64,000 bases of DNA from an uncultured cyanobacterium (GCA_963749915.1 CAVVOP010000008.1:480001-544000); one strand, 5' to 3'; counted from the first letter of the stretch, positions 11,901-14,623 are shown. The notes: generated by a model from the sequence alone, not told the origin. Numbers and translations are program-made.

Positions 11901-12241
11901 ACTCGACTCTCTACTTTTTTGTTTAAGTATCCATTCTTTCATTTTCCATCGATGCTGTATTCGAGACATTCAAGAAAACAACGGAATCAATCGCTGGTTT
12001 TGTGCAATGGGTAGCAAAACCGATTCGGGATAAAGATTGGGGTTCCCTGATTTGCCTTATTCTTGCTGCCATTATTCTCGGTTGGCTGTCGAGAGCGGCG
12101 ATCGCCCTAGGAGTAAAAAGGTTTCAAATGCTTATAATGAAAGAATCATAAATTTTTGGAGATGTCTATTGAAAGGGCTGGTCGATTGTGGCTCTAATTC
12201 GCCTTCGATTGGACTAGCCTCACTTTACACCCACTCTCTCA

Positions 12242-12661
12242 ATGAATTTCCCACTTAGTCTAAGCTCGCTTCTAGCCTTATATCTGCTGACCTTAACTAG
12301 TCCAGGTTGGTCGGCATTACCTTTTTCCTCAAAACAAAAAGCTGACATCATTGAGCGCATTAATATTTGTCAGCAACCTATATTTGAGGACGGTTATGAA
12401 ACTGGCGATTTTAAAATTTCCATCTTTAAAGAGCAAAATGGTAGTTTTATTTACTGTGGCTATAGTAAAAAAACTCAAGCTAAAATCATCCTTACTGCTA
12501 TTAGAGGAAACAAGTTTAACCCCGAAGTTATTTGGCAAGCAAGGAATGGCACGGTACTTTACACGATCAAGGTGTCAGGGGAGTCTAGCTATATATTTAG
12601 CATAACCGAAAGAGGTTCGAGAATCTATCAGGCTGAAGCTTGGTCTGTTTATCCCCCTTAA
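12242..12661 (+). CDS. Small secreted beta-rich protein, unknown function
   Basis: Signal-peptide-like N-terminus (LLALYLLTLTSPGWSA), two Cys, alternating beta-strand pattern. Confidence 0.65.
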   Translation: MNFPLSLSSLLALYLLTLTSPGWSALPFSSKQKADIIERINICQQPIFEDGYETGDFKISIFKEQNGSFIYCGYSKKTQAKIILTAIRGNKFNPEVIWQARNGTVLYTIKVSGESSYIFSITERGSRIYQAEAWSVYPP

Positions 12662-12787: not shown

Positions 12788-14440
12788 ATGGCTGATGCTC
12801 CTATTCTATTTGACAAACCTTTTCCTGAAACTCAAGTAAGTGCGCCTTACCAGAAATACACCAATAAGATCATGGGAACTGTCTTAGTGACAGGCGGTTT
12901 TATGGAACCTCGTGGTCATGGGTATAAAAGCTTTGTCAGTCAAGCGATTCGCCGAGATGGTTCGATGTTTAGTATTGGTCCTGGCAACTATAATATCGGC
13001 TTTGACTATTCTAAGGGCTTCGGTACTTCAGTTATCTGTATGTATTCCGGGATAGTGACTAAGGCGGGTCGAGAGGGGGGTTACGGCTATCGAATTCATG
13101 TCAAATTAGATATCCCCTTTATCTACCAAGGCAAAACCTATACTTGTTACCAAGCTTATGCCCACTGTTCTAAACTGTTGAAGACAGTGGGACAGAGAGT
13201 AGCTCAAGGAGAAGCAGTTGGGATTGAAGCCGGACACGGTTCTAACGGACCTCATGACTATGGCTCTCACGTAGATCTCGATACCTATTGCACGATTAAG
13301 GGTCAAAAGATTCACCTCAACTTTGAATTCCTGGCAGAGGGAGTAGACGAAGACGATTTTGTGGAAACTATTGAGGTAATGAAGGTTGGCTCTCGCGGCT
13401 TAGACGTTCGTTGGCTTCAGCAAACATTGAAGATTAATGCTGATGGAAAATTCGGTAATGCTACTAAAGCAGCAGTTGAGAACTATCAACGTAGCCAGCC
13501 AGATTTAGTTGTAGACGGAATTGCCGGTGAAAATACCTGTAAACAATTGGGGTTGTACAATTTTGCCATTTATGCCAAACAAGAAACGATTATCAAACAT
13601 CAACCCGTCCAGTCGTCGGAAATCACCGACCCCCAAGACAAATTTGACTTCGTCCCTGAAACTGAGATGGAACCAATACTGGCCAATTGGGTTGAGGACG
13701 AAGGAGAGCACTGGAAATTTGAACTCAAAACTCCTCAAAATGGCAAATTTAATTGGTATGCCTTTAAACCTCACGTTGCTATCGTCCAAGGTTATGAGGA
13801 CGATCGGGAAGATCTTGGTGATATAGATGAAGCCACTCTAGAAACAAGTGGAGAGGCCAACCGTTGGGAGAAAGCTTTAAAAAATTGCCCAACAGAAGGT
13901 TGTAAACCAGCAACCGCTAACCCGGAAGGGCTTAATTATGCAGGAGTTCCCGCGAGTCATGAAATTGCACGCAAAGACATGGCTAACCTCAATCAGGAAA
14001 GACTGACTTCAATCGACAAAGCTGCTCGAAAGCTTAACGTTCCCGCCGCGATTATTACTGCTCTAGCTAGTCGTGAAAGCCATCTCGGTTCAATTCTCGG
14101 CGAGTTTGGTAACCAACCGGGTTGGGGAGATAATAATCATGCTTGGGGAATCTTGCAGGTCGATCGCCGCTATCATTCTCCTCTCGCCGGATTAGACGAC
14201 CCCTATTCACAAGCCCACATCGAGCAAGCCATTGGCATTTTCAGCAATTACCGGGATCAGGTAGAGAAAAAACATCCCACTTGGCCGGACGAACAAGTTC
14301 TCAAGGGCGCTTGTGTTGCTTATAACTCTGGGGTGAGTAATGTTATTACCATTGGCGGAATGAATGAGGGGACAACACATGATGACTATGGGGATGATGT
14401 GATCGCCCGAGCTCAGTTCTATCTGGAAAACTTGAGCTAA
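12788..14440 (+). CDS. Multidomain peptidoglycan hydrolase: M23-like + PG-binding + small beta domain + goose-type (GH23) lysozyme
   Basis: ATG 12788 has an AGGGG SD. M23 elements GYGYRIHV, YAHCS, VGQRVAQGEAVG. PG_binding_1 GSRGLDVRWLQ...DGKFGNATKAAVENYQ...VDGIAGENT. Lysozyme g motifs SRESH, GWGD, GILQVDRRYH, AYNSG, GTTHDDYGDDVIARAQFY. Confidence 0.9.
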   Translation: MADAPILFDKPFPETQVSAPYQKYTNKIMGTVLVTGGFMEPRGHGYKSFVSQAIRRDGSMFSIGPGNYNIGFDYSKGFGTSVICMYSGIVTKAGREGGYGYRIHVKLDIPFIYQGKTYTCYQAYAHCSKLLKTVGQRVAQGEAVGIEAGHGSNGPHDYGSHVDLDTYCTIKGQKIHLNFEFLAEGVDEDDFVETIEVMKVGSRGLDVRWLQQTLKINADGKFGNATKAAVENYQRSQPDLVVDGIAGENTCKQLGLYNFAIYAKQETIIKHQPVQSSEITDPQDKFDFVPETEMEPILANWVEDEGEHWKFELKTPQNGKFNWYAFKPHVAIVQGYEDDREDLGDIDEATLETSGEANRWEKALKNCPTEGCKPATANPEGLNYAGVPASHEIARKDMANLNQERLTSIDKAARKLNVPAAIITALASRESHLGSILGEFGNQPGWGDNNHAWGILQVDRRYHSPLAGLDDPYSQAHIEQAIGIFSNYRDQVEKKHPTWPDEQVLKGACVAYNSGVSNVITIGGMNEGTTHDDYGDDVIARAQFYLENLS

Positions 14441-14505
14441 TCTTCCCAGTATAAGGAGTTAAAGTAACCTGAAACCTGAGTATTGGATAAGGGAATCAGC
14501 TCTAA

Positions 14506-14586
14506 TAGACATCTCCAACAATTCCTAAAAAGAGGGCTAAAACCCCTATTCTATCGTTTTAAAATCATAGTTTCTGGAGATGTCTA
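14506..14586. mobile_element. 81-bp MITE, family B (TAGACATCTCCA...TGGAGATGTCTA)
   Basis: Perfect 12-bp TIR with TA ends. Colinear 81-bp degenerate copy at 22661-22741; isolated ends at 12157-12168 and ~30150-30161. Confidence 0.75.
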
Positions 14587-14623
14587 GTGGCTACCACGGT
14601 AATTCCGGAAGAGCCAGATATTG

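Follow-up and report, generated by a model that had tools for sequence, protein, structure and literature searches.

How a protein ending in a goose-type (g-type) lysozyme domain came to be encoded by a cyanobacterium, and what it does there, are the questions raised by a gene at 12788-14440 (+) of the window, the 64,000-nt stretch of DNA analysed here, which comes from an uncultured cyanobacterium (GCA_963749915.1, CAVVOP010000008.1:480001-544000); positions are those of the window unless another contig or locus is named. The open reading frame has no internal stop, and an alignment shows that its ATG start is common to the homologues. According to its translation, the homologue alignment and an AlphaFold model, it encodes a 550-residue modular peptidoglycan hydrolase (P0001). 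From N to C terminus, the domains are an M23/LytM-fold domain with an altered zinc site (approximately residues 23-185; 12854-13342), a PG_binding_1 peptidoglycan-binding domain (residues 204-254; 13397-13549), an SH3-like beta domain (residues 259-335; 13562-13792), an acidic linker (residues 336-356; 13793-13855) and the goose-type lysozyme (GH23) domain (13856-14437), all on the + strand. Pfam scores for M23 (PF01551, residues 70-156, 35.7 bits) and PG_binding_1 (PF01471, 36.4 bits against a cut-off of 23) are above their cut-offs, and the latter domain forms three helices in the model. The linker is modelled with low confidence (pLDDT <50 at 341-356) and is variable in the homologue alignment; over the whole protein the mean pLDDT is 84 and the pTM is 0.45, the latter suggesting that the modules are loosely joined. 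Inspection of the N-terminal sequence reveals no hydrophobic signal peptide, as the original prediction had also observed. No NCBIfam family scores above its cut-off for P0001, and promoter-like sites are not in excess (3 seen versus 5.1 by chance).

The C-terminal domain is a genuine member of the g-type lysozyme family by sequence, fold and residues, and the resemblance is real and far beyond chance. When residues 358-550 were compared by phmmer with 177,635 PDB sequences, all six matches at E<=0.001 were vertebrate lysozymes g (black swan 1gbs, E 3.4e-41; goose 153l, 2.3e-40; ostrich, cod and salmon; range 3e-41 to 3e-32). In a Foldseek search with the AlphaFold model, ranks 1-9 are lysozyme g chains (E 1e-13 to 4e-12, target TM 0.84-0.89), and M23 peptidases come next. 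Goose E73, D86 and D97, named as catalytic or candidate catalytic residues in the accessible text of PMC4243810, align by phmmer with E430 (14075-14077), D448 (14129-14131) and D459 (14162-14164). Each of the three is conserved in 39/39 close homologues, and across 115 family rows the Glu is present in 114, the first Asp in 103 and the second Asp in 111. All of the lysozyme g motifs originally quoted from the last ~190 residues were found, and the proposal that the Glu and both Asp residues are kept was borne out; the structure comparison suggested there as a check agrees. The animal enzymes (goose 153L, swan 1GBS, cod 3GXK, salmon 3MGW and Trichoplax PLys) share the fold, the full-length motifs and Glu73/Asp86/Asp97 with P0001. 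Unlike them, P0001 has three further domains fused, a neighbour gene, a prokaryotic host, 4-5 additional residues between its SRES and GWGD motifs and a place in a separate clade.

The M23 domain is a different matter. Canonical M23 zinc ligands are H-x3-D and H-x-H. Here the motifs read N69-x3-D73 and H161-x-D163, so that two of three canonical zinc ligands are replaced; in PDB alignments, N69 takes the place of the His of HxGxD present in M23 enzymes of known structure. The site residues (N69, D73, H126, H161 and D163, plus an extra conserved H44) are kept in 38-39 of 39 homologues, and on this alignment evidence the domain is under selection, yet has no canonical zinc site. Its fold matches in Foldseek include both active M23 enzymes (LytM, lysostaphin) and degenerate LytM factors (EnvC, DipM), but a site with N-x3-D, H-x-D and two further conserved His is neither canonical like the former nor decayed like the latter. 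A binding or non-canonical module is a somewhat better description than a standard zinc endopeptidase. The proposal of two catalytic domains survives as to the M23 fold, found by both Pfam and Foldseek; it is doubtful as to catalysis, because the zinc motifs read N-x3-D and H-x-D, canonical ones being missing in nearly all 39 aligned homologues. The SH3-like domain is all-beta in the model, and its Atlas neighbours are SH3 and amidase-associated clusters (0.86-0.88, under the 0.9 mark); it is probably a second wall-binding module, a prediction to be taken as a lead only. A 555-residue protein of unknown function in the same genome (C11:2490-4154, - strand) starts with a paralogous SH3-like domain. 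The original prediction mentioned neither the SH3-like domain nor the partner gene upstream nor the link to an injection system.

In a representative library there are 651 matches at E<=0.001, the best 150 of which were inspected, and 87 at 1e-30. In a separate search, 87 proteins of 302-963 residues matched, and 42 of them, query included, carry M23 together with PG_binding_1; the architecture is therefore not unique, and bacterial g-type proteins are in print for myxobacteria (PMC11576321, PMC12855814). A single pattern scan of GTDB genomes, which sets a lower bound, found at least 91 relatives, of which 80 were retained. By record title 34 of these are cyanobacterial and 24 myxobacterial, and the remainder come from Pseudomonadota, Thermodesulfobacteriota, Acidobacteriota, Bacteroidota, Chloroflexota and unnamed bins. 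The g-type family spans seven bacterial phyla plus phages, and the domain is shuffled with VanY, M15, CHAP, amidase, C39, LysM, SH3 and phage lysozyme modules, and once with MACPF-jacalin. Viral contigs contribute 18 loci, 10 of them stand-alone full domains. The g-type domain has no match in the GenBank phage or GenBank plasmid collections, and in PHROGs it has only a weak transglycosylase match, with no clear PHROG for the stand-alone phage versions. The stand-alone phage or prophage proteins (L081-L090, L073; 187-216 residues) are candidate endolysins. In three loci (L003:1210-2868, L024:3514-6392 and L026:4078-5573) the homologue is split in two ORFs, through turnover or assembly error. 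On a contig binned, probably wrongly, as Bathyarchaeota (L014), the protein branches almost as sister to gammaproteobacterial copies and has the partner gene that they have.

Within the phylum the gene is rare: the full domain occurs in 4/401 genomes and a shorter relative in three more, and 0/19 genomes of the same family carry the gene. It is nested among cyanobacterial relatives of 63-88% identity. Its GC content of 45.3%, against 38.3 ± 5.2% for 2,541 long ORFs of the genome, falls in the top 7%. Together with a gene for a 139-residue protein, it forms a two-gene cassette bracketed by copies of a dispersed repeat. The left copy (12151-12170, 20 nt) is inverted relative to the right one and 95% complementary to 14504-14523; the right copy (14504-14589) contains a palindromic pair, 14506-14517 and 14575-14586. 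The 10-mer core of the repeat occurs 51 times in the genome, and the repeat is also present at many sites in four related genomes. The rarity, the GC content and the bracketing repeats together make a recent acquisition from another cyanobacterium likely; in the four related genomes the genes that flank the cassette lie far apart, so that no empty insertion site can be recognised there. Contamination is unlikely, because the flanking genes on the 940-kb contig look like what, judging by sequence, we take to be cyanobacterial housekeeping genes. Left of the cassette, a 74-codon open stretch lacking a start (11927-12151) runs into the left repeat copy, up to 12170; it has matches elsewhere solely via the dispersed repeat, and is perhaps a gene remnant.

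The first gene of the cassette (12242-12661, +) ends 126 bases upstream of the lysozyme gene, and its product has a signal-peptide-like N-terminus and a predicted eight-stranded beta-barrel (model pLDDT 79). Close homologues lie directly upstream of a lysozyme gene in L004, L006 and L107, but not in L108; of the five known close copies, four adjoin a lysozyme gene. In L107 the homologue also follows an amidase-like gene, and it may therefore belong to that enzyme. Among the 401 genomes, close homologues are found in the focal genome only; distant relatives occur in 41 at E<=0.001, and in the 18 distant loci read by eye no recognisable wall hydrolase adjoins.

Other lysozyme subfamilies have other small exported neighbours. 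Under a fixed rule, 80 loci were scored for a small signal-peptide-like gene adjacent on the same strand; 13 proved unscorable, an overlapping antisense ORF having been picked, and 21 of the other 67 have such a gene, though the 21 are not independent and represent about four families and a few singles. The same rule yields 106/1,659 genes of the focal genome (6.4%) and 12/139 of the other genes at these loci. The partners belong to four or more families that do not cluster together by BLASTP, and one of them accompanies the lysozyme gene from Microcystis to Gammaproteobacteria, switching sides. No small exported neighbour was found in any of 13 membrane-anchored forms, or in the closest relatives (L001-L003).

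The 139-residue protein has no Pfam match, and Foldseek with its model gave nothing at E<=0.001. Structure comparison places it near PliC (Z 7.5, rmsd 2.8, 76 aligned), BtaiB (Z 8.1, 2.9, 82) and PhiA (Z 6.5, 3.3, 75), with a globin linker chain at Z 8.7; PliG is absent among the 50 structural matches listed. PliC/MliC, PhiA and the T6SS immunity protein BtaiB are small eight-stranded barrels like the model. However, the protein is only 4-8% identical to them and the matches are middling, tied with unrelated barrels, so that the likeness needs no kinship; a common barrel is enough to explain it. It is nonetheless plausible that the protein is a periplasmic inhibitor or immunity partner.

A second lead comes from contractile injection systems. 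The lysozyme gene is on contig C8, and the focal genome has an eCIS locus on contig C19 at ~194.8-228 kb (194,800-228,200) that comprises two sheath genes, tube-like genes, a baseplate and Pvc16; VipB has no match in the genome. Two long related ORFs in this locus (995 and 1,071 residues) may be effectors. The eCIS marker Pvc16_N is present in 24/42 lysozyme-bearing genomes (the focal genome and 41 genomes of the 80 loci, with myxobacteria left out and G404 dropped as a duplicate of G715), including 19/30 named cyanobacteria, compared to 29/251 genomes of a phylum sample and 0/9 kin of the focal genome. It is absent from the remaining 18 of the 42, some of which are incomplete. In one genus of 111 genomes, Pvc16_N occurs in 6/7 with the full domain versus 34/104 without (p 0.009), a shorter relative in G807 being counted as without and six of the seven carriers being already in the 42-genome sample; in a second genus the figures are 1/2 versus 1/30. 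Pooled within genera or close kin, they are 8/10 versus 35/143, but kin are not independent, and shared lifestyle and genome size can inflate such an association, larger genomes having more accessory genes. DUF4157 was not found by Pfam in P0001 or in 22 further family members scanned. In L075, an AAA ATPase gene, a lysozyme fusion and a lipoprotein-like gene stand in a row.

Taken together, the evidence tips slightly towards P0001 being a recently acquired modular wall hydrolase of the bacterial and phage lysozyme g branch, whose likeliest role is that of an antibacterial toxin paired with a periplasmic immunity protein. It would be synthesised in the cytoplasm and would reach its target through the eCIS of the genome or when producing cells lyse; that it is eCIS cargo in particular is unlikely. 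At a wall, PG_binding_1 and the SH3-like domain would hold the protein, and E430, as general acid, with D448 and D459 would very probably hydrolyse the MurNAc-GlcNAc bond, leaving reducing rather than 1,6-anhydro ends. The 139-residue neighbour may protect the producer, at slightly less than even chances. A role in antagonism or lysis had been suggested from the start, and it fits both the small exported neighbours and the co-occurrence with the eCIS marker. T6SS Tse, Tae and Tge are peptidoglycan-targeting effector-immunity pairs. As in those pairs, a signal-less hydrolase is found here beside a small exported protein; the genome also encodes an eCIS, for which a peptidoglycan-hydrolase toxin, EAT10, offers a precedent (PMC8213781, as far as its accessible text goes). 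P0001 differs from EAT10 and the T6SS pairs in lying outside the eCIS locus and in its g-type catalytic domain, and its toxin-immunity role is putative.

Alternatively, the protein may be an endolysin that the producer has domesticated to open its own wall, for instance when eCIS particles are released or during stress lysis; the neighbour would then restrain it or have no part in the process. The signal-less modular architecture is endolysin-like, and ten viral contigs carry the stand-alone versions of 187-216 residues, some beside short hydrophobic genes that we take to be holin-like, PHROGs having given them no holin label. However, there is no holin-like gene next to the focal gene, and a self-directed lysin would also have to be reconciled with the gene's position outside the eCIS locus and with the exchange of unrelated exported partners seen in the family. 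Such exchange is more typical of toxin-immunity pairs. The Pvc16_N co-occurrence does not discriminate: it fits eCIS cargo and a release lysin equally, because eCIS are released by lysis and Anabaena forms ghost cells lacking peptidoglycan (PMC8894136, accessible text). A lysin turned on its own cell is, on balance, somewhat unlikely, and the toxin with an immunity partner is preferred.

The origin of the domain was approached with a careful tree of 56 hand-chosen rows and 187 columns, a subset of a 118-row set from which a quick tree only was made; the rows include no sponge, cnidarian, bivalve or brachiopod sequence, all of which are present in published trees. Six cyanobacterial and phage proteins with the catalytic residues and a shorter N-terminus served as the outgroup, where the tree tool warns of long branches, and the g-type clade separates from them at 100/100. 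In the unrooted 56-row tree, a group supported at 100/99 unites 11 animal rows with one from Choanoeca flexa (99 for the animal group in the 118-row quick tree). The query falls in a 20-row cyanobacteria-rich group at 100/99, and six myxobacterial rows join a Blastocatellia row at 98/86. One split thus divides animals, with one choanoflagellate row, from bacteria and phages, and the tree alone gives no direction; parsimony favours transfer from bacteria to animals, because the nearest outgroup is prokaryotic. Over the tree columns, the query is 39% identical to vertebrates and 43% to myxobacteria, so a special likeness to vertebrates, as read in the original prediction, is not supported; the label 'animal-like' reflects which family members are famous. 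AU tests reject a union of the query's group with vertebrates (p 0.005). They do not reject a sister relation between animals and the bacterial rows as a whole (p 0.63, +6.4 lnL versus the free tree), two roots inside animals (p 0.66 each, +8.4 and +8.3 lnL versus the free tree) or all bacteria with vertebrates (p 0.19). The constrained tree beat the free tree in three of the five tests, so that the free search was suboptimal and the root is unplaced. As between the inter-kingdom transfer and the bacterial sister lineage first offered as explanations, the sister lineage fits the trees, and a vertebrate transfer to the query clade alone does not.

The kept roots inside animals, and the retention of all bacteria with vertebrates, are what would be expected if every bacterial and phage g-type domain went back to a single ancient event in which a lysozyme g gene was captured from an animal, a widening of the model in PMC12855814 in which the focal gene is a late descendant; the bacterial rows also all lie on one side of the 100/99 split. 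This too is unlikely. Animals as sister to all bacterial g-type rows fit about equally well, and a single transfer between domains of life is then enough where the capture model calls for two, given that the closest outgroup consists of cyanobacterial and phage proteins that for the most part retain E/D/D. The bacterial rows are also somewhat more diverse (mean identity 46% versus 50%) and span seven phyla, and introns make a direct transfer unlikely according to the accessible text of PMC12855814 itself.

The same alignments bear on a third alternative, in which P0001 is an ordinary housekeeping lytic transglycosylase that merely resembles lysozyme g. The GH23 fold is common to both, many members are labelled SLT in databases, and the accessible texts of the papers on bacterial members (PMC11576321, PMC12855814) report no assay of any. 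Family-1 lytic transglycosylases of Escherichia coli (Slt70, MltC and MltE) share the GH23 core and catalytic Glu with P0001, but have neither aspartate, and the N-terminal segment and C-terminal GTT-x2-DY motif of its domain are missing from them. Pfam SLT (PF01464) reaches 13.2 bits on P0001, below its cut-off of 21.3. Animal and bacterial g-type sequences form one clade apart from Slt-type enzymes across a long branch (99 SH-aLRT in the 118-row quick tree), which is how the GH23 phylogeny recommended at the outset came out, and the gene's absence from all 19 same-family genomes searched is at odds with a housekeeping role. A housekeeping transglycosylase is thus very improbable, and the initial assignment to the g-type rather than the Slt type, with hydrolase residues present, appears sound. 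Least credible of all is that the focal cyanobacterial lineage took the gene directly and recently from an animal, vertebrate or other. The motifs in common and the 44-48% BLASTP identity with two bird enzymes are outweighed by the 49% identity of Stigmatella and Microbulbifer proteins in the same test, the rejected union with vertebrates and the nesting among cyanobacterial relatives.

A tentative and rather speculative scenario is that lysozyme g arose in phages and bacteria as a hydrolytic muramidase and was passed around as a modular antibacterial warhead, with immunity proteins that could be exchanged and with links to contractile injection systems. An ancestor of animals and choanoflagellates would have acquired it in a single capture, and a second eukaryotic lineage may have taken the focal subfamily independently. 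If such a bacterial origin is correct, the immune enzyme of animals would be a weapon domesticated from bacteria; it would not be a housekeeping transglycosylase put to new use, nor would the bacterial copies have come from it. Shorter 'proto-g' proteins of cyanobacteria and phages (L103-L105, L091, L094 and L098) have the Glu and both Asp and are intermediate between Slt-type enzymes and lysozyme g; L094 is flanked by an amidase-like gene and a membrane-anchored gene. The Choanoeca flexa row is a EukProt transcript (P0090) of 601 residues with two g-type domains, which groups with animals at 100/99; as a single transcript it could be contamination, and choanoflagellates are stated to lack g-type lysozyme in the accessible text of PMC11576321. 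Four unlabelled Logan/JGI records (P0145, P0154, P0166 and P0174) give a eukaryotic impression through signal peptides and low-complexity leaders. They share the focal subfamily's loop insertion and branch beside it, and could represent a second transfer into eukaryotes.

Myxobacterial homologues were already known and, in the accessible texts of PMC11576321 and PMC12855814, are read as professional lysozymes. The two papers disagree on the direction of transfer: PMC11576321 proposes transfer from myxobacteria to animals, and PMC12855814 finds myxobacterial sequences nested in animals and argues for the reverse, with only myxobacteria discussed as close bacterial relatives in the accessible parts of either. 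In the present trees the myxobacterial rows are not nested in animals, unlike in the published tree of PMC12855814, though sponge and cnidarian rows are absent from this sample. The myxobacterial proteins resemble P0001 in having a bacterial g-type domain, often PG_binding_1, and no evident signal peptide. They differ in that their lysozyme domain is usually N-terminal rather than C-terminal, in their separate clade (98/86 with the Blastocatellia row) and in having no small exported neighbour by the fixed rule. What appears to be new here is the cyanobacterial and phage branch of the family. The string 'cyanobacteri' occurs 0 times in the main texts of both papers, whose supplements or figures may hold such sequences, and no account of a cyanobacterial or phage g-type lysozyme was found in a literature search that most subscription papers fall outside; databases already know bacterial members, since UniRef names a Stigmatella member 'Lysozyme g'. 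The focal gene leads to what is missing from the debate: cyanobacteria, five more phyla and phage forms, together with a closer outgroup that has the catalytic triad and a transcript from a choanoflagellate. Given better sampling, the origin of lysozyme g thereby becomes a question that can be tested. The gene is also a pointer to a so far undescribed system in cyanobacteria, in which wall hydrolases and pore-former fusions occur with small exported partners, and to candidates for new lysozyme inhibitors and lysins.

One such fusion is a 1,732-residue protein (L013:393-5588) that combines a membrane domain, MACPF, jacalin, M23, PG_binding_1 and g-type lysozyme. A ~380-residue N-terminal domain with membrane helices and no Pfam match recurs in L005, L013, L019, L021-L023, L029 and L045 and in P0008 and P0019; it was not found in the focal genome. 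It heads proteins that end in g-type lysozyme, MACPF-jacalin, phage lysozyme with C39, or M15, often encoded by tandem genes, and looks like an undescribed polymorphic-toxin family.
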